Source: Nanobdellota archaeon
Lineage (GTDB): Archaea > Nanobdellota > Nanobdellia > Woesearchaeales > JAHWHD01
Direction of reading: 5' to 3'
Assembly (NCBI GenBank): GCA_034722435.1
Contig: JAYENX010000007.1
Coordinates: 1 to 19,693 of the forward strand
DNA: 19,693 nucleotides
The notes beneath the pieces were generated by a model, which was not told where the DNA came from, searched no databases, and worked only from the letters and a program-made list of their open reading frames with translations. Numbering within the stretch: the first letter of the stretch is position 1; the number at the start of each line of letters is the position of its first letter. Positions 1-19,693 of the stretch are shown one piece after another. Made by a program: the position numbers and the translations under genes.

Positions 1-800
1 GAAGCTGGTGTATCTGTTAAGGTATCAAAGGTTGTAGAACCATTAATAGTCACAGTTGTTGTATCACTTCCATTATCAGTTACTTCTACACCATCTCCTA
101 CAAAATTTAAGTTATCTCTTTGTGTAAGTGGAGTTCCCTCATCTTGAATAGTATGTCCTCCACCACTACCTGCAATAGACACTGAACCATCTGAATTAAC
201 AGTTACTGACCCATTAGCAAATTTAAGAGTGTTAGTGGTTGCTACTGGTGAGCCATCTTCTTCTGTAATGTTCAGTCTTGTTGATCCTCCACCAAACAAA
301 CTTGTTCCTTGTTTTTTCTTAATATCTTTTTCAAGCTTTTTCAATATTTTATCTAAACCACGAATAGCAGATTTGTCAAGCTTTTCATCTTCATCTTTTA
401 TAGATTCCAATTTATCTCTGATTTTTTCTGGTGTATCTAAAATGATTTCTTCATTCTCTGGTATCCTTGATAATACTTCTTCTATTATGTGTTCCTCATC
501 AGCATCAAGTCCATCAATTCCACCTTCCCCTTTGTCTCCTTTTAGTCCTTGAACTCCAGTTTCTCCTTGTTCTCCTTGTTCTCCTTGGATACCTTGTTCC
601 CCTTGGATACCTTGTTCTCCTTGTTCTCCTTTTTCTCCTTTAACGAAATCAACATCTCTAAAGTCTATATCACGAACTGACTCCTTGATTTCATCAGCTG
701 AATCTTCTATATCTGAAAGAACTGTCATTATAACTGCATCTTTACTTGAAGCAGTCTTATCATTCATTAGAATGTCTTGTATATTTCTTTTATTTTTCAT
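1..800 (-). CDS. Collagen-repeat tail fibre-like structural protein (partial, runs off left edge)
   Basis: Open frame from ATG at 800 to the window edge, absent from the ORF track: MKNKRNIQDILMND...GEKGEQGEQGIQGEQ...GGGHTIQDEGTPLTQRDNLNFVGDGVEVTDNGSDTTTVTING. It has 15 Gly-X-Y triplets, then a Thr/Gly/Asp-rich beta-type segment, and follows the ejection genes. Confidence 0.75.
   Translation of the reverse strand, partial: MKNKRNIQDILMNDKTASSKDAVIMTVLSDIEDSADEIKESVRDIDFRDVDFVKGEKGEQGEQGIQGEQGIQGEQGEQGETGVQGLKGDKGEGGIDGLDADEEHIIEEVLSRIPENEEIILDTPEKIRDKLESIKDEDEKLDKSAIRGLDKILKKLEKDIKKKQGTSLFGGGSTRLNITEEDGSPVATTNTLKFANGSVTVNSDGSVSIAGSGGGHTIQDEGTPLTQRDNLNFVGDGVEVTDNGSDTTTVTINGSTTFDTLTDTPA
504..638 (-). 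repeat. Collagen Gly-X-Y tandem repeat (15 triplets, 9-bp unit)
   Basis: GEK GEQ GEQ GIQ GEQ GIQ GEQ GEQ GET GVQ GLK GDK GEG GID GLD; the plus strand shows repeated TCCTTGTTC units. Confidence 0.9.
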
Positions 801-912
801 AATATATTTTTCTTAATGTTTGAGCCTTTTTTTTAATGTCGTTGCTCTCGACTTTAATTTTTATCAATAACTCTGCTGGTATTGATTTCTTATTTCTAAA
901 TGGATTTTTCAT
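790..912 (-). CDS. Small basic hypothetical protein (40 aa)
   Basis: MKNPFRNKKSIPAELLIKIKVESNDIKKKAQTLRKIYYEK, TAA stop. A-rich start context; fills the gap before the fibre gene and overlaps its start. Confidence 0.5.
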   Translation of the reverse strand: MKNPFRNKKSIPAELLIKIKVESNDIKKKAQTLRKIYYEK

Positions 913-996
913 AATGTTTGTGTTATAATAGTAGTATATGTGAACAATTATATTTATATTGATTGTTGTAAGTGCTACAATAGACCTAATAAGAGA

Positions 997-2682
997 TTAA
1001 TCTTGTGATTGCTCTGACACTCATTCCAGTAGTATCCCTTTTGTAACAGGGTCTGCTTTTTCCAGTGTCGCAATAAATTTTACAGCTTGTGTTTTAGTAA
1101 TCCCAGTTAATGCAGTTAGTTCTCCAACCATTTTAGGTGATATTACTATTTGTGACAATCCCCTAACCAAATCTCCAATACTTGCAGTGGACCTAGACAC
1201 CCCTTCTGATAAAAGCCTACCTGCCTCTTGCCCAATAATATCTTTTCCACCAACTATTTCTTTTTCTAGCATTTCAATCCCAGTTCCTTTCTCACCAGAA
1301 AAAATATTACTTATTTTCTTTTCAACTTTAATCCTTTCTGCTGTAGAGATACCACCCTTAGCCCCAAATTCTTGCTTCATCACATCTAAAATATCCATTG
1401 ATGTAGCATACTTTTTATTTATATCCTTAACTTGAGGTACTTTTTTTGATAAATAATCAAGTATATTTTTTGAGGTTCTGTCAATAATTGAATTAAGCTC
1501 ACTTGTTTGTGTTGCTGTTCTGAAATTTTTAATTTTTCTTGTTAGCATTAGCAACCCCTCTGGTGTTGTGTCATCTCATTTGTTAATAGCATCAAAAACA
1601 TCATCCAATCTTTTTGCTTCGATATTGTCTAATGGGGAATATTTTGTATTTAATTTTCCTCCATCCATTGTGACTTTGAAATCATCAAGTGTTTTTGATA
1701 AGTTCTCTAAAATTCCTTTTGTTGTTATTGTTGTTTTTTTACCCTCTTGGCTTATAACTTGAGTTGCTCCATTCTTGAATTTTTTAAATTTCACTGGTAA
1801 CTTATCTACAGCCTCCCTGTATTCTTTCCCCGCATTACTTCTTAATGTTTTTACACCTTTTTGAATATCTTTAGCCTGACTTGTTAAACTAGTTTCACCC
1901 CTCAATCCTTTTAATGCTGCAACAGGGTTTTTTAATATCGAATCTATTACAGCAGTTCCTTTCCCTGAAAACACACCTGCAGTTGATTTCAAAATTCTGC
2001 CACCTGTATCTGCTATTTTACTTATCACTGGTTTAGCAACTGCTCCAACAATAGGTAATGCACCTGCTATACCACCAACTGTTGCAACTTCTTCATTTAA
2101 TTCTCCTTGTCTTGCTGTTTCAACTGCTCCATATCCTAATGCCTCAGTTCCAGCTCTACCGAGTAATCCCCTTGTCTTTGAGAGAGTTTTACCCGCTCCA
2201 GCTACTTTACTTACAGCTGTCGCTCCTTTAGTGATAGCTCCAGCTGGTGCTAAGAAAGTAGCAATATCCCCAACAGCTCCTCCTATTTGTTGACCTGCAC
2301 CTTCTCTTTTTAGTGCTTCTTCAGAAAACACCCTATCTCCAAATATTCTCTCAACATTTTTTTTCCCTATTCTTTTTCCTCTTTCATATGCCTCCCCAAA
2401 AGACTCTTCACCCCCTAATGAGCGAGGTACAGCCATTATTCCTGCTCCTAGTTTTCCAAAAAGAGAACCAACACCTTTTACTAAACCAATTTCAGATTTA
2501 GCCAGTCCAAGCCTTATATCTTCAAACAAACTCTCTCCTTTTACAGATTTATCTATTTCTTTTTTTGAATATTTTTGTTTAAAATCATTGACAACAAATT
2601 GGATATTCTCTTGGCTCTCTTTGTTAGTTGTCATTTGTTTTACAATATTATCTAATTTTTGTCTATCTTGTTCTTGTAACAT
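997..2682 (-). CDS. Internal virion (ejection-type) protein, 561 aa with TGA=Trp
   Basis: Track ORFs 1576..2682 and 1021..1554 are in one frame. Reading through TGA at 1576 and 1021 reaches TAA at 997. Ala/Gly-rich amphipathic central region (FLAPAGAITKGATAVSKVAGAG) and position after the nozzle fit podovirus ejection proteins. Confidence 0.7.
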
Positions 2683-2687
2683 ATTTT

Positions 2688-4757
2688 TTAGTAATTATAT
2701 TTTGTTCTTAAATTTTCTTGACCTGATGATTCACCCCCCATACCACTTAATCCTAATAATTCGTCTGCTGTACCTTTTATTTCTATATATATATTTTCCA
2801 TACCACTCACATCTCTTCCTAGTTTTGCACTTAGCCTTAATTTGTTTTCCAATGACCTTTGTATTGAACGAATTGTAATACCCAACACAGCCTTATTTAC
2901 ATCATTTGTTGATGTTAAATTAGGTAATGTTTTAGAATATATTTCAATATCTTTATCTGTTAGAACTCCAACTTCACCATAAATACCCCTGGCTAAATTG
3001 GGAACGATAGCAGATAATTGTGTCTTTACTATTTGTGACTTCTCTGCATAAGGGTTATTGCTTGTTATAGTTCCTCAAATAGGTCCAGTTGCAAGACTCT
3101 TTATATTGTTTTGCAAGTCTGATACTTGGTATAGTGTGTTTAAACCTTTTTCAAAAGAATTTATGAATGTGTCACTAACATCTTTCCCCCCTGCACTTGC
3201 TTTTAATATCCCTATAAAATCCCCTTTTTTTAGTGCTTCATCTTTTAATTTGTTTAATTCTTGGTCTACCCTACTTCTTAGATTATCTTTTACTGATATA
3301 TCTGTTAGTTTTTGTGTACTACCATCAGCCATTATTGATTTTGCTATTGTAAGTTCCTCACTGTCAGATGCCTCTTCTAAAAAATTCTTATAACTTCCAT
3401 TTGTGAAAGCCCCTCAAGGTTTAAATGAACCACCAGCTTCATCATACACTTTTCTTGCTATATCAATATTTGATTTTCAATCATTAACATCTAAATCTCC
3501 AATTTTATCTTTATGTACAGCAGTATTTATTTGGAAGATTCCATGACTCCCTTCTGGTGCTAGTTTATTATTTTTATCTCCATGAGCATCAATTTTTAGA
3601 TTACTTTCCCCCATGGCTATTGCTAATGCAACATCTGGATTTTCTGGGAACATCTTTATAATATATTCAGCTATCTCTCTTTCTTCAGTTGAAAAATTAT
3701 TTAAAGTTGTTGTTTTAAATAATTCAGTACCAGTAAGACCCTTAGATTCATTAAGTGCTGTTTTTATTTCTATACTCTCTTCAGTAGACATGTAAGGTAA
3801 TGCCAACATTAGTGCTTCACCCATATTCTCTGCTTTATATATTTTATCAATAACATTAGCAGGTGCTTGCTGAAGTCTTGCAACCTCTAAAGCTAGTGTC
3901 CCTATCTTATTCCTCTCTTCTTTTTGTAATGCAATATTTTCATCTTCTCTTTCTAACATAGTAAATGCTAGACTTAATTCTTTATCTTTTCTTCCAGTCT
4001 TTCTTTCAGTTTCTTCATTAAGTCATTCAAGTTGTTGTTTTTGTGCTGTAAGCATATCAGCTCTATCAGCAAATTCATATTCCACAGCTTGATTAACTTG
4101 CTCTAATGCCCCCTGATAATCTCCTTGTGTTGCTAGTAAGTCTGCTGCTGCATATCTTTTATCAATACCAATTCTTCTTGCTCTCCTTGTTGACTCTCCT
4201 TGATAAGCAGATGTAGTTCTCAATCCTCTTCCTTCAGATTCCTCTTGTCTCATTTGGTCATAAAGAGTATCTTCTTCAGCTTGCAATCTTTCTAACTTTC
4301 CAGATGCGGCAGTCATAGCTTCTCTTTTAGTACCAAGACCAGCTTCATCTCCAAGACTTGCTAATAAATCTGCTCTACCTCCTTGTCCTTGCAAAGCAGT
4401 TACAATCCCTTGCTGTCTTTCTCTTTCTAGTGTAGTTACTTCATCTTGTTTGTAAAAGTCTTGTGCTGTTTTGAGTAGATTATTAAAATCTGGAGTCTTT
4501 CTCATTGTTGGCTCTGGTGCTGTTGGTAGTCCTGACATGTCAGGTACATTTCCTAGCTCATTTACATCCATACTATTATTTTGTTTTGAAAAAGCACCGA
4601 TAGTATTCTTACCGATTATTCCATCAACTGTCAAGTTATTTTTTGTTTGGAAATCTCTTACTGCTTTATCTGTTTGCTTTCCAAAAATACCATCAGCAGT
4701 TATTCCCAGCTTTTCTTGATACTGTTTTAGGTCATCACCTGTATATCCTTGTTTCAT
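2688..4757 (-). CDS. Internal virion (ejection-type) protein with N-terminal peptidoglycan-binding domain and internal lytic transglycosylase/lysozyme-like domain, 689 aa with TGA=Trp
   Basis: Four track ORFs join through 4 TGA codons. N-terminus G..GDDLKQYQEKLGITADGIFGKQTDKAVRDFQTKNNLTVDGIIGKNT matches PG_binding_1. ALAIAMGES...SHGIFQIN...WKSNIDIARKVYDEAGGSFKPWGAF matches SLT/lysozyme-like motifs (putative catalytic Glu at 3606-3608). Confidence 0.8.
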
Positions 4758-4758
4758 T

Positions 4759-4914
4759 CTATATATTTTTTATTAGGTATTCTTTTGTAGAGATTAAATC
4801 ATCCCCATAAGTTTCTTTTAATATTTCCTCGACATAGTTTTTTAAGTCGAGATTTTTTTTACTTAACTCTTCCTTGACAGCTTCTCTTATTTCTTTTTTA
4901 ATTTCTTCATTCAT
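4759..4914 (-). CDS. Small hypothetical protein (51 aa)
   Basis: MNEEIKKEIREAVKEELSKK...KNI. The start at 4914 lies 1 nt after the upstream TAA; TAG stop 1 nt before the next ATG. Confidence 0.6.
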   Translation of the reverse strand: MNEEIKKEIREAVKEELSKKNLDLKNYVEEILKETYGDDLISTKEYLIKNI

Positions 4915-4915
4915 A

Positions 4916-6400
4916 TTAATCATCTTCTTTAACTTCATATTCAAATTTTGCACTAGTAATATTCAATCCTCTTTTTGAAGTTATTTTGAACTGTATTTCT
5001 TTGTATTCTGGAAGAGATTGTCCAGAAGTAAATCTCTGAACTTTTCTATCATCTTCTCCATCTACATCAATATCATAAGTTAAAATCTTGGATCAAGAAG
5101 CTACTTCATCATCGTGGCTATCTATATTGCTTGGGTCAATTGTCCTATAATAAACATTTGCTTCCTCTTCACCAAAGTCTGTGAGATTAGTTTTTGTAAA
5201 AGATAGAGTAAAACTCCTTAATTCTTTTGTTACACTTGTGTCTCCAAAGTATGAAGTGATGTATTCAGAATCTACTGTAAAATCAGAATAATCACTATAT
5301 CCATCATGGAGTTGTGCTAGTTTATAATTGTTATCTTTATCTCTATATCCAGCAACTAAAATTCCATGATATTCATTCACTGTGTAGAATTTCCCATCAC
5401 CCATTTCCATATCTCCTGTAACCCCTACAACTGATACTTCTCCTAGATGATTTATTTGATAAATCCCATTATATGCTACTTCTTCCCCTAGTCCTAAATA
5501 CAAGTTAATGCCATCAGTATATGTATTTCATCTTGCCTCTGCACTACCCCAAGCATCATCTATATTTTTTAATCTATTTAAAACATTGAAATATGAGCCA
5601 TTAAATTGTTTAATTCATGTAAACCCTTCGTTCTCTTTACTGTTTTTGCTTTTTATGTTTTGAACTATAACTGTGATTGCTTCATTAAGCACTGCTGCCC
5701 CTATAAAGAACCCATACCCTAAAGATATAGTTTTCTCAAAGGTTGCTGGTTCATTGATAACATCATATAAGAACATTCTTGTTTCTCCAGTAGCTTCCAC
5801 TTCAGCAAAAATAGCCATGAAACCTTTATACTCAATCATCTTTTTATACTCGTGTCCTTGAGGTAAGGTTTTTAATGAAGCACTAAATGTTGTTCCATCT
5901 TGTTTATATAAGTTATATCCTGATATATAATAAAGATTATCTGTTGATGTATTGTATCCCATCAAGTATTCTCCACCTGATGCAAATGATGTATCCACAT
6001 TTGCTGTAAAAACTTTTGTTCCAGTAACAAACTTAAATACATCTCCTGAACCCTCTTCTATACCATAAATACAGTTCTCAACTCCATCATGGTAGAACAA
6101 TGCATCTCCTAAATCTTCTGCAGTATCACGAGACTCAACCCCTGTTGTAATTCCAAAAGAGTTTCCTGTTGTAACTTCAGAGAACATAATATCATAAGTA
6201 TCATCTTCCCCTATAATTCATAAACCATCTCCTTGAATAAATTTTTGTGGATGGTATCCATTAGAAGTTGTAAGTGTCTCCATATCTGCCACAGGGAATA
6301 ATCCTTTTTTGTCAAGTCATTTACTTCTTAATTGAGCAAACCTTGTGTCTCTTTCATCACAAGACATTGATTTTTTAAAATCTATTTCTTTAATTGTCAT
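4916..6400 (-). CDS. Putative tail nozzle / tail tubular protein B-like, 494 aa with TGA=Trp
   Basis: Continuous frame from ATG 6400 through 5 TGA codons to TAA 4916. Aromatic/Gly-rich beta-strand composition; lies directly after the adaptor gene. The function is inferred from synteny. Confidence 0.6.
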
Positions 6401-6402
6401 TG

Positions 6403-7101
6403 TTATTTTGCATTTACTCTCTTTCCTCTCATTATGCTTTTTACATTATCAAGACCTTTAAGATACATCTCTAAAGCTTTTTCTGTCTCGAGTTTCTCCA
6501 TTTTAAGAGTATTTACTCTGTCTTGTTTGTAAATAGAACAATAAGCAAGGGAAGCTTCTATTGATAATAATGTGTGTGCTAGTCTTGGAATTTGTGGCTC
6601 TGCTGTTGTGTCTGTTGAATCGAAAAGTGTAGTTCTTTTTATATCGTAGATTCTTAAACCATCTGTTTTAGTATAGTTGGGAGTAGGATATAATGTTGCT
6701 GAATCACCTTCTATTGAGATATATCTTGGAATACCACCATCATCGTTAAAAAATTCTTGTACCGCACTACTAATTTGTTCCTTTTCAATTAATTTAAGGT
6801 TTGTTCAAACCCCATTTTCATCTTTCACTTCTGCTCTTCTAAAGTGATTGACTTCTGTAATTGGAACAAGATTAACACCATCTGCTAAATTATAATCAGC
6901 TAGGTTATATGGTGCTGTTGTGTTTGTGTCTGCTGGTTTAATCTTTCCAGAGTTCAAGATGATAAAGTTAATAACCTTATCATAGGAATTGTTTAAATTC
7001 CTTGTCTTATCCTTAATAGGATATTTGTTATCATTAGTTGAACACCTGAAATCTATATCTTGTATTAAACCTTGTAGATTTATTGTGTCTGAAAATTGCA
7101 T
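6403..7101 (-). CDS. Head-tail adaptor / tail tubular protein A-like, 232 aa with TGA=Trp
   Basis: Track ORF 6805..7101 extends through one TGA to TAA 6403. Contains G.PRYISIEGDSATLYPTP and EPQIPRLAHTLLSIEAS, patterns typical of podovirus adaptor proteins. Confidence 0.65.
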
Positions 7102-7102
7102 A

Positions 7103-7486
7103 TTATTTAGTGTTTTTTAATGCTTCTAAAAATTCATGCCCTGCTTTTTCTTTCACATCTGTAAATATAGCTACAATCTCTCCATCTTTTATTGTGATTT
7201 CCTCTAGGACTTCAAATTTAGAAGATTGTTCTTTCTTTTCAATCTTTTCTAATAATGGTACTACATCTTTTTTAACTTCATTAAAGTTTTGAGCAGTTTG
7301 TTTTATAGTGTTAGTTAGTTGCTGATTTTCCTCCATCAACTTTTCTGACATATCTTTTAGTTTTTCATTATTATCCTCTATTTTTTTAGTAATCTCTTTT
7401 GCTTTTACCAAATAAGCTTCTTTCTTTTCTATATATGGTTTTAATTTGTCATCTTTTACAATAACTTCTCTTGTATATTCTTTCAT
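7103..7486 (-). CDS. Hypothetical coiled-coil protein (127 aa)
   Basis: Complete ORF with TAA stop, Lys/Glu-rich heptad-like segment, coupled to the adaptor gene by a TAATATG junction. Confidence 0.75.
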   Translation of the reverse strand: MKEYTREVIVKDDKLKPYIEKKEAYLVKAKEITKKIEDNNEKLKDMSEKLMEENQQLTNTIKQTAQNFNEVKKDVVPLLEKIEKKEQSSKFEVLEEITIKDGEIVAIFTDVKEKAGHEFLEALKNTK

Positions 7487-7495
7487 ATGATTTAT

Positions 7496-7654
7496 TTAGT
7501 TAATTTCTCCATTAATTCTTCTCTCTTTTCATTTTTTCATTACCTCTGCTCTTGAGCTACCTGTTATTTTAAACCCATCTTTATCAATCATGTCTATTTT
7601 TTTGATTGGGTTAGGATCAATAGCTATTTGTGTTTTTTTGTTATCTGCTGTCAT
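7496..7654 (-). CDS. Small hypothetical protein (52 aa, one TGA=Trp)
   Basis: MTADNKKTQIAIDPNPIKKIDMIDKDGFKITGSSRAEVMKKWKERINGEIN, TAA stop; fills the gap after the capsid terminator. Confidence 0.55.
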
Positions 7655-7659
7655 GTTAT

Positions 7660-7691
7660 ATATAAATTATACTGGATAATAACCAGTATAA
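7660..7691 (-). terminator. Probable intrinsic terminator after the major capsid gene
   Basis: Perfect 9-bp inverted repeat TTATACTGG (7667-7675) / CCAGTATAA (7683-7691) with a 7-nt loop and a weak T-rich tail on the minus strand, 30 nt after the capsid stop. Confidence 0.6.
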
Positions 7692-7721
7692 ACAACCAAG
7701 TTTTGATTGTTAAACTAGCGA

Positions 7722-8618
7722 TTATGCTACTACTGATAGAATTTCAATTCCTGCATCTGCTCTGTTTACTACAACACCATATTTGATGTCTGATACAACT
7801 AGTTCCCCAAGGTATTCTAATTGGTAAGCTGATTGCATTCTAACTCCTGGTGTTCCATTTGCATCTACAAATGCTCCTGGTAGAGCTGCTGTTGCAAAGT
7901 GGATAGCATCTTTGTGTAGTAATGCTCCTGAAAAATCAGTTCCATCATCTGACACTGAGTTAGATTCAATAACATCTATGTTATAAATTCTTCCAACTCC
8001 TCCATTGTTTTTTGTTCCATCTTGCCCAAAGTCTCCTGAAACAAATCTATCTGAAGTCATTAAGTCTTCTCAAATTTGTTTTGGTGAAAGCACGAATGCT
8101 ACATCTTTGTTATTAAATGAACCTTTAACTGCTTGTTTTAATTTTGAAACAGCTGTTCTCAATGTAACATCTGATAAGTCTGTTCCAGTTGTTCCTACAG
8201 TAAGTGTAAATGAGCTAAATAATGCTGCTAAAGCATTTTCTAAGTCTTCTGCTACTGCATAACCTGCATCTTTCATTCTTCTTTCTTGGAATACATATGA
8301 AGCTTTCACTGCTGCCTTGTCTGTATCTTCAAGAACAAATGATGATTCTTTATGTGTATTAATGTTTAAAGTAATTGCTGTTTCAGTTGGGCTTTGTAAA
8401 GTAACTTGTGTTCCTGCTGCTTTTGTGTTTGTTGCAAAAGCAGTTGTGCTTGGAGTGTAAAGTACATCTCCTCCATTTGCTACCTCATCTGACCTATCTG
8501 TTACTAATCCTGCAATTCTTAAGTTTTCTCTGTAGAAGTCATTTACTGATGCTCCTCAGATTTCTGGTGTAAATACTGCAACGTCTACTGCTGTATAGTG
8601 GTTTGTTCCTAATGCCAT
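7722..8618 (-). CDS. Major capsid protein (P22-coat-like), 298 aa with TGA=Trp
   Basis: MALGTNHYTAVDVAVFTPEIW(TGA)GASV...GDVLYTP...ITLNINTHKESSFVLED...AGYAVAEDLE...GRIYNIDVIESN...SDIKYGV. The FxPE[IL]W and G..G.I.G/N..V..SN motifs fit this family; the gene follows a scaffold gene. Confidence 0.88.
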
Positions 8619-8660
8619 ATTATTTTTTGTTTAAAATTTGTTAATATGACAACACCTATA

Positions 8661-9230
8661 TTATTGCTGTGCTTTTCAAAGAGCCTTTCTTTCAGCATCT
8701 GTAAGACCTGAACTTTGCAGTGTCTTTTTTTGTTTTGCTGTTGAACCTCTACTAACTCCTAATTGGGCTTTTTTATTTTTATCCTCTTGGAGCTTAGTCT
8801 CTTTTCAAGTTTTAAAGTAACTTGATTTGTAAGCTTCGTCTAATGAAGTCCCTTCGATTTTAGCAATCTGAATAACTTTATCTACTGCATCGTCTTCAAA
8901 TTCAGAAGGTATATCTTGTGAATTAAATATTTTTGAGTAGAGTTTTCCTTCTTCCCTTGATAATGCATTTGTAGATTCAGTGTTGTCTTGTTTTGTCTTC
9001 ACTCACTTTCCCTCTACTTTTGTGTATCCTTCTCTTTTAAGAACTCTGTTTTGAATGGCTAACTCTTTCTTAAGGTTGTTACCTTTGTTAACACTTACTT
9101 CCTCTTTTTGTTCTTCCACCTCTCCTTCGATGTCTTCATTTTGTTCCTCTTCATAAGAATCAATATTAAGTTCATCTGTGTTATTTATTTCCTCAAAGTT
9201 TGTTTCTTCGGTATTGTTTAATTTTGTCAT
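8661..9230 (-). CDS. Capsid scaffolding protein, 189 aa with TGA=Trp
   Basis: Two track ORFs join through TGA at 9003, 8805 and 8676 to TAA 8661. Very acidic N-terminus and basic C-terminus; lies directly upstream of the capsid gene. Confidence 0.75.
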
Positions 9231-9286
9231 AGTTATTTTCTAGTTATTTAATTCACTTTTGTCATGGGAGTGATAACCCGTGTTAA

Positions 9287-9511
9287 TTATATTCCTCTTG
9301 ATTTAGTCTTCCTGTCTTTTTTTGGCTCAAACTTATCGTTCAAAGATTTAAACCCTGAAGCAAGTAAGTCTGCTGATAATTTATAATGTGCAGTTTCTTT
9401 TCCAGAGTATACATCTTCTAAAGCTTTTCTATTATTATGCTCTATTAAGAATGATACCAATGATTCCTGCATCTTTTTATCATTATAAAATTCTTTTAGT
9501 TTCTCTTCCAT
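9287..9511 (-). CDS. Small hypothetical protein between portal and scaffold (74 aa)
   Basis: Complete ORF with TAA stop and a TAATATG junction with the portal gene. Confidence 0.7.
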   Translation of the reverse strand: MEEKLKEFYNDKKMQESLVSFLIEHNNRKALEDVYSGKETAHYKLSADLLASGFKSLNDKFEPKKDRKTKSRGI

Positions 9512-9512
9512 A

Positions 9513-11237
9513 TTATTGTTGTCCTTGTGGTAGTGATTGCTCTATAGTTGCCTGTGTTTGTGTTTGATTACCTTGAGTATCAACTGTTCCAGTAGTTGCT
9601 CCACCACTAACACCAAATGTTGCTGATGATATACCTTGTACCTCCATCATTTCATTTATAAGTGTTTGTCTTTGTGGGTCACCTGGTTGTAATAATTGTA
9701 ACTGTGATGCTAGTGCATCTAATTTTCTCTGTCCATTAGTTTGTTCATCTGTTACATTAAAGAATCCTTTTTTTGTTATCTTTTCCATAGTGATGTACTC
9801 TTTTGGAATTGTTAGTTTTCTTTCACTACCTTGTTTTTCTAACTCTTTAGCTTTCATCTCCTCTATGTTAGATAAGTCATCTGCTGTAATTGCACCCTTA
9901 CCATTCATATTACCAATATTACTTAATATTCTTTCCTTGACAAACTCCCCTTTTGCTTTGTTGATAATATCTTCATCAATTAATCTTAACTCTCTTGGTG
10001 AGTATGAGGCTGTTAGCTCATGCTCTTGATTAATCTTTTTAATTAAGTCTGGCATAATTCAATCCACTAGGACTTCTCTTAAATTGAATCCATCATCATC
10101 TCTTCTCTTATTAAAGATTGACCCCGCTTGTGCTGCTTGTAAAGCTTGTGAAGCAAATGGTGTTCCAGCTTTTGCTTCTTCACCAGTTACAGCATTAAAA
10201 GCTGATTGGTCTCTTTGTAAGTTTTCAAATCAATTATCAATTGAAGCTTGGTACTGTACTAGCCCACCTGATGGCATTAAGCTCATTGGTTCAACATACT
10301 CATCATTCTCAAGATAAATCATTTCCCCATTCACAATAGCTTTGGCATCTGGTAGGTTTTGTTTGTTAGTCTTCATCACAACCTTACCTGACAAACTCCT
10401 TGCTTCACTTTCCTCAATCACTGCTTCGTTGATGGCAATTTGTGCTTCAAATGCTTCTTCTCACACACCAAGTCCTCAATCAATACCTTCAACTTCTTTT
10501 CTCTTAAAGAATTTGTATCTTGTTTCTGTTAAGTCTTGTTCATGTAGTAAAAATCATTCTCCATGCACTGTTGCTACAATAATGTTTTTTAATATCATTG
10601 AATCTTCATTCTCTTCATCAAAATACTCTGATGGGAATCAACCTTCAATGTCATAAACTTTTATACCTTCTCAAATCTGTTTTGTCTGTGAGTGTTTTAC
10701 AATCACTTCATCAACTTCATCTCAGCCCTTTCCCCTCATTTCTAATGGTGATAATTCATGCTCTTCAATCTTTATCCCATTTAAAATATCTTTTGGATTT
10801 ACTTTAATAAAATTTCAATTAACAATATCAATCTCGTTAGTCTTCTTCAACATTACATTTCCATACTCGCTCTTTTTTCTTTGGAACTTGTCTATAAATT
10901 CTCCTCAATTATTTTCTTTCATTCATTGCTGAATTTCTTTATTAATAATCATTGAGAATACATAGTCTGAATCAGTTGCTTGATATTCAATATTCTTTCT
11001 ATCTAAATTTTTAGCTCTTCATTCAAGGTCTACGAGTGCATTTCCTACATTCCTAAACCTATATGTGTTACCATCCTCATCCTTACCTCCATCAGTGTAT
11101 TTACTTAATACATAATGTGTTATCTGTGAGATTTTTTCTCCTAGATTAAAATCAATATCTCCAACAATCTTTATAGGATTGTTTTCATATGATTTTATAA
11201 GACCTTCTATGTGTCCTCTTATTTTTGTATCTAACAT
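9513..11237 (-). CDS. Portal protein, 574 aa with TGA=Trp
   Basis: Track ORFs 11019..11237, 10230..10421 and 9513..10055 share a frame, and 11 in-frame TGA codons link them. Size, position after terL, the IDWGLGVWEEAFEAQIAIN segment and the Gln-rich tail fit podovirus portals. Confidence 0.85.
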
Positions 11238-11247
11238 ATATATTTAT

Positions 11248-11276
11248 ATTATAACATTAAATTCCTTTTTTTACAA
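11248..11276 (-). promoter_or_regulatory. Sigma70-type promoter upstream of the portal gene
   Basis: TTGTAA (11276-11271), 17-nt spacer ending ATGT, TATAAT (11253-11248), i.e. an extended TGn -10. It overlaps the terL stop codon. Confidence 0.65.
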
Positions 11277-12771
11277 ACTTTCTAATTTTCATATTATTGT
11301 TGCTAATAAGTCCTGAAGTTACTTCCCCATTATTCACCCCAGTCTTTAATAAATCGAAGTAAGCTCTGAATAAGAATGTATCTCATATATCAGGACTTCT
11401 CCCTAAATATCCCTTCACAGTTTCCTCACTTTTGTTATTACTATCCTTTGGGATTAAGGCTAGCTTTTTATCATCTCCTTGTTGTTTCTGCCTCATAACA
11501 GCCAAGGCTTCTTCAACGATGACTTCCTTTTCTAATGCTGTTGCTGTTATAGATATTTTTCTATCCTCTATCATTTCAGCCAACTTAAATCCAGCTTGTG
11601 ACTTTAAGTTACTGAAGTTTACTACTGTGGTATCTATCCCAGGAACAATTTGTCTTCTGATTGTTTTAGCTTTTAAAGCTGATGAGTTGTTAACGAATGA
11701 CTTACAACCTTTTAAGAAGTCTGATACTCCACCACCCACACCATCATCATCAACAACGACATGACTTCTTGGTATTTTAAATTCTACTTCTAATTCCCTT
11801 GCATCTTGAACTGTTCTGTCAATTCCTTGTTTCTCTTTAACAACTCTTTTAATACTATGTCATCCTTTTCATACATTAAAAACTATTCTATCCCCACCAT
11901 ACCTTGCAACATCTATAGTTAAGTACATATCGTTACTCTCAATTATACTGTTTGTAAACATATCTTCAACTGCATCAAGTGATACAAGCATATTAGTTAC
12001 ATCATCATAGTCTCAATCTCCATCTCTTAGCCTTCTCTTTGTTTTTTCATCTACAATACCATCAAGCTGTGCCTTGTAACTTTTAGCAACATAAGGATTT
12101 TCACTGTATAGTACTGGAACATAAGCCACACTGCTATCAAGCTCCCCTTTTGTATATGGTATATGGAAGAATCTTTTAATCCAAGTTGAGCTGGGGTTAA
12201 AAGTACAGAGTGTTTTAGGTTTTATCTCAATAATGTTTGGATACTTCTCTGGGGATGTTTCATAATCCTTTGGTGGTTGCACCATTATATTTAATTCAGT
12301 ATCAAATAAGTTGTGTCTACCAGTCCTAGTCTTTAATACATCAAAGGCTTGAAAGTGGGTTTCCCCAGCTTCTTCAATAGCCCCCCTTGTATATTCAAGT
12401 GAACCGAACCTTTCGTACTCTGCATCAGTTGGCTTAAATGCAATATCAAGTAAATCAATAGTTGAGCCATTCTTAAACTTAATTATATTATACTTACCAT
12501 CTAGCTTTCAATCACTCTCTGGAATATTATGGTGTTTACATACTTTGTTCCAAGTAACATAGGTTGAAGCCATTAGTCTTTTTAACTCGTTCCTTGCTAT
12601 ATAACCACGATAGCCTGGAAACCTATAGGCATATATTAATTGGTCTTCACATATGAGTCAAGATTTACCTCCACCAGCACCTCCACCAAAGCCCACTATT
12701 TTTGTATGGTCATCATTAAGGTAGCCTCAAGCTATGTCTTGTTTTATTGTTGGTGTTAATGTTATTTCCAT
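11257..12771 (-). CDS. terL: Terminase large subunit, 504 aa with TGA=Trp
   Basis: Walker A GFGGGAGGGKSW, ARNELKRL, Walker B GAIEEAGE, CTFNP, LRDGDWDY, nuclease motifs TIDVARYGGD, VVDDDGVGGGV and GRSPDIWD. Seven in-frame TGA codons. Confidence 0.95.
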
Positions 12772-12777
12772 AATTTA

Positions 12778-13176
12778 TTAATCTTTATCGTTTGGTTTTA
12801 TATAATTAATTGATACAACAGTATTAAGCTCTGCTCCATCTTTACCAGATAGTTCTGTCTTTGTCAAGGCTTTACCATCCATCCTATCTAAGTATGAGTT
12901 CACAGCACCTAGCTTGACAGAATTGTTTTCTTCCATTGAAGTTAGAGCTTTTAATTCAGTAACTACACCATCATAAATTCTCTTATTTTCGATATAATCC
13001 ATTACTAATCTATTACTCTCTAAAGAATCAATTGTCTCTGATATTGATTCTTCCATATTCAAATCATAAATAACTTTTATTTCACCTCTTACAAATTGGT
13101 AATCTTTATTTATTGATAACACAGATAGTCTTTGTTTATCAGATAGTCTTTCTAATTTTTTTTCTAAACTTTCCAT
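12778..13176 (-). CDS. terS: Probable terminase small subunit (132 aa)
   Basis: Directly upstream of terL. C-terminal DRMDGKALTKTELSGKDGAEL pattern is typical of TerS proteins. Confidence 0.7.
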   Translation of the reverse strand: MESLEKKLERLSDKQRLSVLSINKDYQFVRGEIKVIYDLNMEESISETIDSLESNRLVMDYIENKRIYDGVVTELKALTSMEENNSVKLGAVNSYLDRMDGKALTKTELSGKDGAELNTVVSINYIKPNDKD

Positions 13177-13227: not shown

Positions 13228-13557
13228 GTTACATTTGATTTGAAAAGTCTTTTGAGAAATATACAAATATATATATATTATTACTCTCTATTATATATAA
13301 AAAAAGTGTAACTTTGTAACCTTTTTAGCTTAGACCTTATAAAATAAGGGCTTCCGAGGTTACAAAAAAGTTACAAAAAGGTTACAAAGTTACAGAAAAC
13401 AGCCCTTTTTCACCCATTTTTCGGTTTTTTTACTCTACAACAACACACTTTAAGGTACTTGTAAATATTGAAAAAAGCAAAAAAACCAAAGGTTACAAAA
13501 AGTAATGTAACCTTTTATCCACAGTTTTTCTTGCATTTTGTAACCGACTATGTTACA
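13228..13557. repeat. Probable replication origin: 11 GTTACA/TGTAAC repeats in both orientations, an AT-rich tract and a central hairpin
   Basis: GTTACA at 13228, 13359, 13370, 13381, 13389, 13492, 13552; TGTAAC at 13307, 13315, 13506, 13539. CCTTAT-aaa-ATAAGG at 13335-13349; AT-rich run about 13261-13305; next to the primase-helicase gene. Confidence 0.7.
13515..13523 (+). promoter_or_regulatory. Consensus DnaA box
   Basis: Exact TTATCCACA, 7 nt upstream of the -35 of the rep promoter. Confidence 0.6.
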
Positions 13558-13559
13558 CT
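13531..13559 (+). promoter_or_regulatory. Sigma70-type promoter of the replication gene
   Basis: TTGCAT (13531-13536), 17 nt, TACACT (13554-13559) with an extended TGn element; overlaps two GTTACA repeats. Confidence 0.55.
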
Positions 13560-13661
13560 GATTGTATCAATGAGTTTAAAAATTTTAACGACTAAATTTT
13601 ACTTCTCTAAGTACTCATTGATTAAAAGGCTTAGGGAGGTAGAATTTAGTTTTTATTTATT

Positions 13662-15827
13662 ATGAATCAAAATCAACTTAAAGCATTAGAATATTGAGAT
13701 GAAGGATACTCTGTTTTTCCTTTGAAAATCTCATATAATAATGGAGATAAAAAACTATCATTTGTTAATGGAAGTTGAAAGAAGTATCAAGAAAAAAGAA
13801 TGTCAGAAGAAGAAGTTGAGAGAGCTTTTAGTGATCCAACATTATCTATAGGTATTGTAACTGGTAAGATTTCAAATCTTACTGTTATAGATATAGATAA
13901 GAATGAGCAAGGGAAGTTAAATGCTAACCCATCAGATTTTCCTGATACTCACACAGTTGAGACACAATCAGGTGGAGTCCATTTATACTATAAGTATACT
14001 GACAATATAAAACAAACACAGAATCTTAAAGTCCCAAACATTGGGGAGGTAGATATTAGAAGTGATGGAGGATTTGTAGTAGCACCAAATGGAGATGACA
14101 GATATAATACCAAAGACAACCAGCAACCAATAGATGCACCAGACCACTTATTTCAAACACAGAGTCCATCAGGAACTTTTAAACATACTACCATTGATGA
14201 TGTAATATATGTTTCAGAACACCCAGAGTTACATTCAAGAAATATAACAGTTTTCAACTACTTCTTGACAGAATTAAAACAAACTGCTACTGCTGATGAG
14301 TTCCAAGGTATCTATGAAAACTTAGTCTTCGCTACTAATGATATTCAATCGAGAGAGAAAATAGATAATATCAAAAAGACTTTTGAATCTGCTAAAAAGA
14401 TTATCCTTAAAGATAGAGAGGGTCAATCACAAAATGATATTAAAAAGGAAGCAACTAAAATGTCAGCTTCAAAAGTGAAAGCATACTTTGAGAGAGTAGA
14501 GGAATACTTTGTAAGAGAGAATGATAAGTATGTAGTATATGTTAAAGGAGATAATATAGAAGAGATATATAAATGAAGTGAAAAAGGACTTTATGAAAAA
14601 CAATCAAAGACACAAGTTAAAGCTGATATATCTACTTTCTTGAAAGAGAAGAATCTGTTTCAATATAATAAAGATAATTTTCACAATGAAATATACAACA
14701 GATTAATCACACACTTGTCAACCTTACCTAATAAAAGATTTACTGAGGTATCTGAAAAAATAAATGTACAAAATGGATTCTTTGATTTAGAGACAAGAAC
14801 TTTGATACCACACAGCAAAGATATTTTCACAGTTAACCAACTGAATTTGGCATATTACCCAGAAGAAACTGAGATGCCTATCTTTCAGAAGTATCTTGAT
14901 GTAATCGAGCAAGACTCTGATGGTCTATCTCAAATGTTACAAGAGTTAGCTGGGTATGTATTGCAAGAAGGTAATGCAAGGCAAGTAGTGCACTTTCTCT
15001 ATGGTGCGACTGGAGACAATGGTAAGTCTGTTTTTTGAAAGATTTTAGCAGAATTATTAGGACATAACAATGTATCTTTTGTTAAATTGGATTCATTCAA
15101 GTCCTCCTCTGACTTTGCACTTGAAGGATTAGCAGATAAAAAATTAAATGTTTCAGATGAAACAAATAGGAGTTATATTGATTCACCAGTATACACTGAG
15201 GCAACATCAGAAGGAACAATTAAGTTGAATAAAAAACATGGTGGAATGTATGATTACACAGTAAAAGCAAACTTTATAATCGTGGGTAACTTCTACCCAA
15301 AATTCAAAGATGCAACTGGTATGCAAAGGAGAGTTGTAGTTGTACCATTCAATCATAAGCTCAAACCAGAAGAAAAGATCTTGAATATTGAGAGAAGAAT
15401 AGCAGAGAAAGAATTATCTGCTATCTTTAACTGAGCTTTAAAAGGTATATTGATGGAGAGCAATTCATTCTTCTTATCAGAGCAATCAAAAGCTGGAACA
15501 CTTGAGTTTGAAGCTATCATCAATCCAGTTAAGGATTTTGTGGAGACTTCTTGTATCTATGATGAAGATGCTTGAATTAGTCCAAAAGAATTATATGGGA
15601 ACACAGAGTTTAGGAGTGAAACAGGTTACAACTTATTTATTAAAGAGAACAATAAAAAGCCTTTAGATTTTAGAAATTTCTCATCAGAGTTTAGAACATT
15701 AACTCAACAACATAAACTTCCTGGGTATGTTGAGTGGGGGGTGGTTAAAAAAGTAGATGGAAAAACAATGAGAGGTGTTAAAGGAATTAAATTATTAGCA
15801 GAATACAATGGAGAGGTTAACTTTTAA
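13662..15827 (+). CDS. Bifunctional primase-polymerase (Prim-Pol) fused to a P4/D5-type SF3 helicase, 721 aa with TGA=Trp
   Basis: ALEYWDEGYSVFPL...SWKKYQ, VIDID, TQSGGVHLYY, VDIRSDGGFVVAP (Prim-Pol). GATGDNGKS (Walker A), KLNVSDE (Walker B), NFIIVGN (motif C), MQRR and IFNWALKG (SF3). Six in-frame TGA codons; TAA at 15825. Confidence 0.93.
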
Positions 15828-16332: not shown

Positions 16333-16866
16333 ATGGAAAATATAGTTACATTAGCAAAAAAAGGAATAAATTACAAAGCAAAAAAAGAACAACTTAAGAA
16401 AATAGAATTTAAAAAAGTAGATGGCATCTGATATGGTTATGCTACAGATGGATATATTATGTTTGAAGTAAAAGCGGGTAGTATATCGTTTAAAGATAAA
16501 ACCCTGGAAAAGTTTTATATTGATGCCGTTGATATAAAAGATATAAGAATTAAAAAGAATGACATTGTTATTAGTGAAATAGATACAGAAAAAGGTATAT
16601 TACTTCTAATTGTAGAAGATAAAAAATACAATATATCAATAAAAAAAGAATGTCCAGGATTCCCCGACCTTGACGAAATAATAAACACCCGCGAAGATGT
16701 AAAAGAAACAACTTCTAAAAATTCTTTTAATTATGAGTATATAAAAAAAGCGGGTGAAATTCTGACTGATAAAACAAATGAAATAAATATACAATTTTAC
16801 AAAGGAAAACACCCATCAATTATAACGGGAAAAAATGGGGCTGCTTGGTTGATGTCAACAATATAA
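16333..16866 (+). CDS. Shortened DNA sliding clamp (DnaN/beta)-like protein, 177 aa with TGA=Trp
   Basis: Start extends to ATG 16333 through one TGA. YATDGYIM, GFPDLDEII, SFNYEYIKKA, INIQF..KHPSII and AAWLMST parallel the beta-clamp motifs VATDGHRL, GRFPDY..V, GFN..Y..D and AYVVMP, in the same order. Confidence 0.55.
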
Positions 16867-17742: not shown

Positions 17743-18090
17743 ATGACAGATATTTTTAACGAGGCAAACAAGCCAGAATCAAACTGATTCAAATTTAATA
17801 AAGTAGGTGATTCAGTATCAGGTAAATTAGTAGAAAGAAGACATCAAGAAGGACAAGGAAATTTCCCAGCACAAGAAGTGTATGTTCTTAAAAAAGATGA
17901 TGGAGAAGATGTTAATGTAGGAATTTCAATAAATAAAAGCTATGTAGTCTCAAGAGCAAATAAAGCAGAGGTGGGAGACACATTAGGATTTAAATTTGAA
18001 AAAGAAGTTCCATCAGCAACAAAAGGAAATGCACCAGCTAAATCTATTGAAGTGTATCTTGTAAAAGGTGAAGAAGGAATAGACTTCTAA
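17743..18090 (+). CDS. Probable single-stranded DNA-binding (OB-fold) protein, 115 aa with TGA=Trp
   Basis: MTDIFNEANKPESNWFKFNKVGDSVSGKLVERR...EVYVLKKDDGEDVNVG...GDTLGFKFEKE...EEGIDF. The beta-rich pattern and acidic C-terminus ending in Phe fit an SSB, and it lies in the replication/recombination module. Confidence 0.55.
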
Positions 18091-18180
18091 CATCAACTCC
18101 TTGAATGAGTATAAACTTACCATTTTTATATTATTATAAGACTATTTTGTATATACTTTACAGATTTTGTAAGCAATACT

Positions 18181-18277
18181 TTGATGGTGTTGTGATGAGA
18201 ATATTCAAGGTAAAAGGAATCCCTAATACATTGCAAGTTAAAACCTTGTTCTCATCACAATGCTATTAACTTTAGCA
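18181..18277 (+). ncRNA. Structured intergenic RNA element, copy 1
   Basis: TTGATGGTGTTGTGATGAGAA (18181-18201) pairs with TTCTCATCACAATGCTATTAA (18249-18269): 21 bp with 4 G-U and no mismatch. CAAGGT/ACCTTG extends the stem after a TATT bulge. Confidence 0.6.
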
Positions 18278-18295
18278 GATTAATAATAAAATAAT

Positions 18296-18994
18296 ATGGA
18301 ATTAATAAAAGGAAAAGAATACAAGACAAAAAAAGAGAATAAAATTTACACAGGATATTATACAGGTATTGAAACAACAAACGGCTTTCTTTTCGAGCTT
18401 TCAGATGACCCATCAAAAGGTTGAGATAGGGATACTTTGGTTCCAAAAGATTGAGTATCAATTGGAGATGATAAATACTGATGATTTGATGAAGATGATA
18501 AATTTGAGGAGGTTAGTCGGGAATCCCAACACCCCACTCTTATGACAACAAAGGAATTTACGGGTAGTGTATATGAAGCAATGGGGGGGGGAGAAATTAA
18601 TGAACCACAAGCAGATGTTAGTGTCATTGAAAGGGTAAGGGAAGCTATTAGTAAGTTGGGATTCCAGGGGGGTGAAGAGGAGGAGTTTAATAAATATGTA
18701 AAAAAAGCATGAGAAGAGCCTGAATGCAATCCCCTAATAGAATTTAAAACTAGGAGTGTGTGAAAAGAAGAAATTAATAACAATAAAAATATGACAATAA
18801 AACAAACATTTAAAAAATTAACAATGAGTAAAGCAGATAAAAACCTTATCAAAGCTGGAGTTGTTAATGATGAATTAGAATTAACAAATAGTGGAAGAGA
18901 TTTAGTGGTTGACTTAATGTTCAACAATAAAGATATTAAGGCTGAAATTGCTAAGATGGCAGAGGCTATTGTTAAAGAACAAGAAGACTGTTAA
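18296..18994 (+). CDS. Hypothetical protein, 232 aa with six TGA=Trp
   Basis: Open from ATG 18296 to TAA 18994 with no TAA or TAG, including a TGA-TGA pair (YWWF). The in-frame ATG at 18791 has its own A-rich start context. Confidence 0.65.
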
Positions 18995-18995
18995 G

Positions 18996-19100
18996 ATTGG
19001 TGGTGTTGTCAAGGGAAAGAACTTGAATAAGTTGGATTGTGAGAGCTAACTCCTAAGGTAGAACTCAGTAATCCCCCTTGACAATGCTCCTAATAGCATT
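18996..19100 (+). ncRNA. Structured intergenic RNA element, copy 2
   Basis: ATTGGTGGTGTTGTCAAGGG (18996-19015) pairs with CCCTTGACAATGCTCCTAAT (19075-19094): 19 of 20 pairs including G-U. It encloses hairpins at 19020-19033 and 19034-19074. Confidence 0.6.
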
Positions 19101-19107
19101 AATTATT

Positions 19108-19693
19108 ATGAAATTATACAAATCAAGAGCATCTGGAGTTGGGCATTTATTTACCCAGCCCAAATTAAAGAAGGACAGGGGGGAACTATCCCAGACAGCG
19201 AAGTCAGCATTAGAACACTGACTAAAAGAAAAGATATATAAAAGAAAGTTTGAGTTTTCTAATAAGTATACCGAGAATGGTATCACACAAGAAGATGAGA
19301 ATATAGATTACCTTGAAGCCAATTCAGAATACAAGAACTTAAAGAAGAATGAAGAACACTTTGAAAATGAATGAGTCACAGGGACACCTGACCTCTTGAC
19401 AGATGACAAGGTAATAGATATAAAATCATCTTTTAGTGGGGATACATTCCCTCTCTTTGATACAGAGATAACTAATAAATTATATATCTACCAATTACAA
19501 GCTTATATGTATCTTACTGGAAAGAGAAAAGCAGAGTTGGTCTATGTATTGGGTAACACAGCAGAGGAAGTTATTTTAAAAGAGTTCAACTATTCTGATA
19601 GTGAAGACTATGAGGAATTTAAGAAACAATATATCTATGATGGTATAGATTCAAAATACAGAATCAAAAGATTTGAGGTTGAATACGACCCAG
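19108..19693 (+). CDS. YqaJ/lambda-exonuclease-like PD-(D/E)XK nuclease (partial, runs off right edge)
   Basis: KSRASGVGHLFT...FSNKYTENGITQE...KNEEHFENEWVTGTPDLLTDDKVIDIKSS...YQLQAYMYLTGKRKAELVY; two in-frame TGA codons. Confidence 0.85.

Follow-up and report, generated by a model that had tools for sequence, protein, structure and literature searches.

Related long RNA hairpins with a wobble-rich box in the early operon of a phage that reads TGA as Trp

Two related long RNA hairpins flank a single gene in the plus-strand early operon of the 19,693-nt stretch of DNA analysed here (the window). Both are built around the same 8-bp helical segment, hereafter the box, and comparison with related contigs indicates that the hairpins are real and conserved in related phages. 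They are most likely an ordinary kind of phage element belonging to a new sequence family. What is new here is the sequence family, its wobble-rich box, an alternative hairpin that competes with the long helix for one arm, and the setting in phages that read TGA as Trp. By analogy with phages T7 and SP82, the hairpins may be RNase III-type processing or stability sites; this is the best supported of the readings considered, at about even odds.

Sequence and fold of the two hairpins

In a scan of the contig with 110-nt windows, both copies are the most stable plus-strand windows, and they are the only two copies in the whole 1.3-Mb bin to which the contig was assigned. Covariance model (CM) R1, with which they were scored, was built from three sequences.

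18181-18269, plus strand: RNA hairpin copy 1; MFE -32.1 kcal/mol, z -5.6; 102 bits with CM R1
18996-19094, plus strand: RNA hairpin copy 2; MFE -38.4 kcal/mol, z -5.0; 107.5 bits with CM R1

The box common to both copies consists of GGUGUUGU paired to ACAAUGCU and includes three G-U wobbles. Its arms lie at 18186-18193 and 18257-18264 in copy 1, and at 19002-19009 and 19081-19088 in copy 2. An earlier reading of this DNA from its letters alone (the sequence-only reading) had singled out shared flanks, and our searches of the window agree with it. On the 5' side, TTGATGGTGTTGT (18181-18193) and TTGGTGGTGTTGT (18997-19009) are the sole zero-mismatch matches, and on the 3' side, ACAATGCT has exact matches only at 18257-18264 and 19081-19088. 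As that reading had proposed, G-U wobbles take part in the pairing of the flanks, the stems go on as GATGAGAA/TTCTCATC in copy 1 and as CAAGGG/CCCTTG in copy 2, and the tops of the two structures differ. Copy 1 is a continuous helix of 22-23 bp with an irregular apical stem-loop on top. Copy 2, from the base upward, is composed of a 5-bp lower helix, a 1x1 U*C mismatch and 14 bp including the box, and its apex is a junction carrying two apical hairpins.

The folding energies lie beyond those of shuffled controls, as had been asked of them, with no shuffle as stable as the real fold for either copy (0/200 each). The minus strand folds more weakly by about 8-9 kcal/mol, with MFE values of -24.1 (copy 1) and -29.3 (copy 2) kcal/mol and z -3.1 in each case, in agreement with the proposed strand preference. 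With DNA parameters, the plus strand is favoured by a mere 1-2 kcal/mol, and copy 2 loses the pairing of its box. Since the strand asymmetry is nearly gone and this box is unpaired in the DNA fold, the selected fold is that of the RNA.

Both hairpins are closely packed against genes. Copy 2 begins one base past the ORF7 stop codon, ATGs follow the two copies at 18296 and 19108 as previously read, and the long helices end only 11-27 nt before the next start codon. The description of the hairpins as intergenic holds if TGA is read as a sense codon and fails under table 11, with which the stretch between the copies is occupied by small ORFs. Neither copy is followed by a T-run or U-tract, the terminator scan lists nothing there, and the combination of a G+C-rich stem and a U run that marks a Rho-independent terminator is absent from both. 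The earlier reader could not assign the hairpins to a known family, and neither could we: a search of the window against Rfam 15 returned no match at the hairpins up to E = 10, and nine related loci, searched up to E = 5, gave only chance microRNA-precursor models at their hairpins (lowest E 0.074, half the gathering score).

Several other candidates were considered and rejected. The sole candidate for a sigma-70 promoter in or before the hairpins, TTGACA at 19078 with AATTAT ending at 19106, was discarded because transcription would begin past the ATG. A hammerhead-like GUGAUGAG in copy 1 was dismissed, as copy 2 does not conserve the motif, and so was hairpin-stimulated stop-codon readthrough, as the frame is closed after 11 codons. 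A 54-aa ORF overlapping copy 1 (18105-18269) is considered spurious because it is not conserved in L135, a related contig described below.

A probably mis-binned phage and its early operon

The window is an entire contig of the 1.3-Mb bin, which represents a standard-code DPANN archaeon, and it has the lowest standard-code ORF coverage among the bin's contigs. Under table 11 the 19,693 nt are split into small ORFs, whereas long genes appear when TGA is treated as a sense codon. TGA corresponds to Trp across the contig, in early and late genes alike. The TGA codon of ORF6 is aligned with the nearly invariant W15 of 35 ORF6 homologues, and the TGA codons of the exonuclease gene align with W or aromatic residues in its relatives. 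ARAGORN found only 4 tRNA genes in the archaeal bin and no tRNA or tmRNA gene in the window. Because of its TGA=Trp code and a virion protein with the peptidoglycan-directed domains PG_binding_1 and SLT_3, the contig is almost certainly a mis-binned phage of a walled bacterium. Its gene content is that of a tailed phage reading TGA as Trp, with a predicted polycistronic early/replication transcript. Pfam and PHROG scans thus place the hairpins among early/replication genes, in the phage early operon that had been suspected.

1-13176, minus strand: late genes (Pfam/PHROG scans)
11260-12771, minus strand: large terminase, late gene
7725-8618, minus strand: major head protein, late gene
within 1-13176, minus strand: tail fibre, late gene
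within 1-13176, minus strand: virion protein with PG_binding_1 and lysozyme-like SLT_3 domains, late gene
from 13662, plus strand: early/replication operon (Pfam/PHROG scans)
13662-15827, plus strand: Prim-Pol/D5-type primase-helicase, early operon
17743-18090, plus strand: ORF6, 115-aa OB-fold protein (SSB-like); 42 homologues, conserved in the phage group
18296-18994, plus strand: ORF7, 232 aa, read through six TGA=Trp codons and flanked on either side by a hairpin
19108-19693, plus strand: PD-(D/E)XK/YqaJ-type recombination exonuclease, truncated by the contig end; phrog_5715, E = 6e-40

The plus-strand operon also contains several small ORFs. ORF6 was modeled by AlphaFold as a small beta-barrel (pLDDT 89.8), and its Foldseek matches in the PDB, all of them weak, are OB-fold or SSB proteins. 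ORF6-type proteins (about 115-135 aa) have no Pfam family; on the strength of the model, ORF6 is probably a phage single-strand DNA-binding protein. Exonuclease homologues show identities of up to 81%. ORF7 has no family match and no relatives in IMG/VR, and the relatives that it does have are limited to its C-terminal ∼70 aa. These residues recur C-terminally in about 30 otherwise unrelated small proteins, one of which has leucine-rich repeats, and the domain is unnamed.

Two further features of the contig were recorded. A 177-aa protein encoded at 16333-16866 weakly matches a PHROG annotated as RusA-like resolvase (E = 1e-6). The divergent intergenic region at 13228-13559 contains dense GTTACA/TGTAAC repeats and a perfect 20-nt inverted repeat (13307-13326 with 13375-13394). 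Because these repeats are DNA-symmetric, we take the region for a probable origin or operator rather than an RNA element.

Homologues, covariation and neighbouring hairpins

Relatives of the phage, all of them short metagenomic contigs, were reached by protein searches with the exonuclease and ORF6. Two lineages supply the homologues with covariation for which the sequence-only reading had called: L135, with two copies, and L130/L131. L135 uses the standard code and its ORF6 is 71% identical. The first of its copies, L135_A (1106-1207, 99 bits with CM R1), starts 24 nt past the ORF6 stop codon and has the same flanks with a different but compensated upper stem. The second, L135_B (350-428, E = 0.0016 with CM R1), is diverged and ends at the ATG of the first plus-strand ORF. 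In L130/L131, where TGA is Trp and the exonuclease is 69% identical, the order is ORF6, a single hairpin and the exonuclease, with no ORF7. This hairpin is divergent and has kept only the core GUGUU/AAUGC.

Anchored on the core, the five family members align gaplessly. The helix measures 22-23 bp in copy 1, 20 in copy 2, 23 in L135_A, 20-22 in L135_B and 29 in L130. The box, which lies near the middle of the helix, is made up of the pairs G.U, G-C, U.G, G.U, U-A, U-A, G-C and U-A. The U.G pair at offset +1 is invariant in 5/5 members, the adjacent G.U pairs are nearly so, and a 1x1 U*C mismatch lies two positions below the core in 3/5. On either side of the box, the 5-bp helix below and the helix above covary (offsets -4, -3 and +7 to +12), for example as A-U / G-C / C-G or G.U / C-G / A-U. 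In A6, an alignment of four sequences, 97.3% of cells are paired, compared with 31-59% when the partners are slid, and 7/20 pairs have changed on both sides, a number reached in 1/500 shuffles. Because the family consists of five members from three phage lineages, the covariation statistics are thin, and we take the covariation on A6 as supportive, not as proof. All five members are intercistronic or in an operon leader, in sense orientation: after ORF6 (copy 1, L135_A and L130), before the exonuclease (copy 2) or before the first plus-strand ORF (L135_B).

An alternative pairing is available to the 3' box arm (AAUGCU), which can form a small hairpin with a complement just downstream.

18261-18277, plus strand: alternative hairpin of copy 1, UGCUA/UAGCA; 3'-fragment fold -4.4 kcal/mol
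19083-19100, plus strand: alternative hairpin of copy 2, AAUGCU/AGCAUU; 3'-fragment fold -4.5 kcal/mol

The same 3' arm is needed for the long helix and for the small hairpin, so that the two are mutually exclusive, the latter being about 25-30 kcal/mol weaker. The small hairpin, of 4-7 bp, is present in 5/5 members and leaves 5-18 nt between its end and the start codon that follows. In the L135_B version, the box arm has a C-to-U change that is compensated by G-to-A in the small-hairpin partner. The small hairpin of copy 2 stops 7 nt short of the ATG at 19108 and is also found in the DNA and minus-strand folds.

Further searches returned no additional members. Exact flank patterns gave 116 or more matches in IMG/VR with 17 specified bases and 7 with 20, as well as 74 in JGI metagenomes; we rejected these as chance matches, which lie mostly inside coding regions and in which the stem does not continue. 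In the IMG/VR exonuclease relatives (40-49% identity), a recombinase gene abuts the exonuclease gene and no hairpin is found there. When CM R1 was run together with CM R2 (see below) on the phage's own bin and on five bacterial MAGs, there were no copies outside phage contigs.

Long hairpins of other sequence are common at the same sites. In the relatives examined, any spacer after ORF6 holds a hairpin, mostly of 18-28 bp, and in L157 and L127 the corresponding place is taken by ordinary terminator-like hairpins with T-runs. The window itself has a third hairpin, unrelated in sequence.

13586-13655, plus strand: third long RNA hairpin; MFE -27.9 kcal/mol, z -6.9

This hairpin has 23-26 bp with 4 G-U pairs, is much weaker on the minus strand (-14.6 kcal/mol, z -3.6) and stops 6 nt short of the ATG (13662) of the primase-helicase gene. 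Within the 3' arm, GGGAGG lies about 22 nt upstream of this ATG, too great a distance for a normal Shine-Dalgarno site; most other genes of the contig have A/T-rich leaders without such a site. L135 has a long hairpin after each of its first two genes and another in the leader; among these, a 15-bp hairpin of unrelated sequence (575-645) follows the 49-aa first ORF.

Standard-code relatives have, downstream of ORF6, a sister RNA family about 90 nt long, located either directly after that gene or past an inserted HNH gene. CM R2, the model of this family, gave plus-strand scores of 44-91 bits, compared with 17-40 bits for the minus strand.

L249, 2008-2099: sister family member
L252, 883-975: sister family member
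L138, 5189-5286: sister family member
L137, 2688-2779: sister family member
L143, 3327-3415: sister family member

The family is also present in L139 and L140 (group L138-L140). It has a conserved core, AGGUUGAUCC ... UAAUCU, and an outer helix, AUUCU-CCCUG / CAGGG-GGAAU. With the window family it shares the base AUUC/GAAU and a 1x1 mismatch above it, and apical motifs as well: UCCUAAGG and GGAUUG/UAAUCC in copy 2, and CACCUUAAU in L135_A. One stretch, GGUUGAUCC(C)UG, has what we take to be a resemblance to the 5' end of small-subunit rRNA. An exact pattern for the family gave five chance matches in IMG/VR, none of which was confirmed by CM R2.

These comparisons also bear on the gene between the hairpins. 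ORF7 is absent from L130, and the interval between ORF6 and the exonuclease contains 0 genes in L130 and L138, ORF7 in the window and three small ORFs in L135. In L143, an HNH-type gene (2846-3313) separates ORF6 from the sister-family RNA; in L127, a contig without ORF6, another (176-652) lies just upstream of the exonuclease and needs TGA=Trp. From these gene orders, the region looks like an insertion hot spot, in which the ORF7 of the window appears to have arrived with, or acquired, its own hairpin copy. The absence of ORF7 from a close relative, the third hairpin at 13586-13655 and the meaning of TGA had all escaped the sequence-only reading, which was otherwise accurate about the pair of hairpins.

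Possible processing sites or regulatory RNAs

In the RNase III-type reading, we infer that the operon is transcribed through the hairpins and that host RNase III, or a similar dsRNA endonuclease, would recognise and cut the long helices, with effects on message stability and translation. Cleavage would separate the operon RNA into individual messages and would remove a helix of -32 to -38 kcal/mol from close to the next start codon. The freed 3' arm (AAUGCU) would refold with its downstream complement into a small hairpin, which would stand at the new 5' end and could shield the message that follows. The hairpins have the regular double helix, about two A-form turns or some 20-22 bp long, expected of an RNase III substrate, and all five members occupy the sense-oriented leader or intercistronic position expected of an RNase III site. 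The idealised E. coli RNase III substrate has 22 bp, with proximal boxes around a central cut (PMC3867540). A helix of 20-23 bp with a conserved central box fits this geometry. The T7 early precursor is polycistronic, roughly 7000 nt long, and has five RNase III processing signals (PMC3867540).

The present hairpins are like the T7 early signals in that they are coding-strand hairpins between genes and in a leader, have a helix of about two turns, and resemble each other within one genome. Cleavage by RNase III in T7 affects message stability and translation, and an internal loop at the scissile bond is typical of the sites there. In contrast, the helix described here is regular with a wobble-rich box, has at most a 1x1 mismatch, located below the box, and has no internal loop at its centre. 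There is no sequence similarity to the T7 sites, and the host here is not E. coli. The likeness to T7-type sites proposed by the sequence-only reading is supported in part.

RNase III processing sites are well known in T7, SP82 and lambda. The putL and putR RNAs of phage HK022, related to each other, structured and each of about 70 nt, act in cis in its early operons. They consist of two short stem-loops just downstream of promoters, whereas the present hairpins are single helices of 20-23 bp, and copy 2, which starts one base after the ORF7 stop codon, therefore leaves no room for a promoter before it. SP82, like the phage studied here, has several hairpin sites in its early transcript, and these RNase III sites have a conserved stem sequence in common. 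They are cut by B. subtilis RNase III, and it is to them that the present hairpins may be likened, although phage lineage and host are different. The SP82 sites are on record (Panganiban and Whiteley 1983, as cited in PMC4838370).

Contigs carrying ORF6 relatives were binned with Saccharibacteria, Levyibacteriota, Sediminibacterium and Nitrospinota MAGs, and one relative comes from Hainich groundwater. RNase III is encoded by 5/5 of the bacterial MAGs that carry ORF6-type contigs, a Saccharibacteria and a Levyibacteriota MAG among them. The archaeal MAG that holds the contig has no match to PF14622 or PF00636 for RNase III, and hence the argument for this enzyme depends on the contig being mis-binned. 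The presence of unrelated long hairpins at the same positions, both in the window and in relatives, points to recognition of dsRNA as such.

Against RNase III stands the box. E. coli RNase III is not known to need an invariant sequence box with conserved wobbles, and such a box fits a sequence-specific binding protein equally well. The conserved apical sequence of the sister family, needless for a plain cleavage site, also argues against it. The hairpins could instead be operators or riboregulators, in which a factor bound to the box, or a switch between the long helix and the small hairpin, sets translation of the downstream gene without cleavage; we regard this as possible, though unlikely. 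Candidate factors would be a sequence-specific phage protein or a ribosomal protein on the wobble-rich box. This explanation would account for the near-invariance of the box, G.U and U.G pairs included, amid surroundings that covary, for an exclusive alternative hairpin with one compensatory change, kept in 5/5 members, and for the location of every element, which ends near a start codon. It sits less well with the unrelated long hairpins found at the same sites in relatives, and Pfam and PHROG scans of the window recognised no candidate RNA-binding protein. The long helix is, moreover, about 25-30 kcal/mol more stable than the small hairpin, and with such a gap it is implausible that the two interconvert freely unless cleavage or a helicase intervenes.

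A broader form of the regulatory explanation is similarly doubtful. Here the hairpins would form one branch of a modular family of cis-regulatory phage RNAs that is as yet undescribed, with the box read by a sequence-specific factor and the long/small switch timing the recombination genes. The phages would then likely infect CPR-type bacteria, and the sister family (AGGUUGAUCC ... UAAUCU) would be a second branch sharing apical modules, suggestions that we hold just as tentatively.

We consider it less likely than the regulatory switch or binding factor, and on the whole improbable, that the hairpins are passive stabilisers or barriers, which would block 3'-exonucleases, or pause or terminate RNA polymerase without a U-tract, the box being common to the copies through recent duplication. 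The element does lie, in many relatives, directly 3' of the SSB-like gene, which is probably highly expressed, and L157 and L127 have their terminator-like hairpins with T-runs at the same place. However, the window copies lack a U-tract and are passed over by the terminator scan, and L135_B, being in a 5' leader, has no message upstream that it could protect. Mere recent duplication is disfavoured because the box has been kept across three lineages (67-81% protein identity) in which neighbouring pairs have changed.

A DNA-level element, whether an attC-like or ssi-like hairpin or a mobile palindromic repeat that brought ORF7 as a cassette, is also less likely than the regulatory explanation and very improbable: ORF7 is flanked by two copies and absent from L130, the ORF6-exonuclease interval is variable (0, 1 or 3 genes, or an HNH gene) and a Prim-Pol/helicase gene is nearby, but 3/8 box pairs are G.U and the box of copy 2 is unpaired under DNA parameters, there are no target-site duplications or Watson-Crick-symmetric terminal inverted repeats, Pfam and PHROG scans of the window show no integrase, a GTTRRRY-type attC core is absent, complementarity is not equal on the two strands as in a palindromic repeat or MITE, and the orientation always follows transcription.

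If the RNase III-type processing reading is correct, its practical gain would be modest, namely a covariance model marking gene boundaries in these phages, and the finding opens no long-standing question. For a group of uncultivated phages, some of them reading TGA as Trp, with relatives found in Saccharibacteria and Levyibacteriota bins, the hairpins would be the first RNA processing signals defined by sequence, and would come with concrete, testable predictions of cut sites. They would also illustrate the insertion of accessory genes along with a processing hairpin of their own, and the invariant tandem-wobble box could reveal how RNase III recognises its substrates in such hosts.
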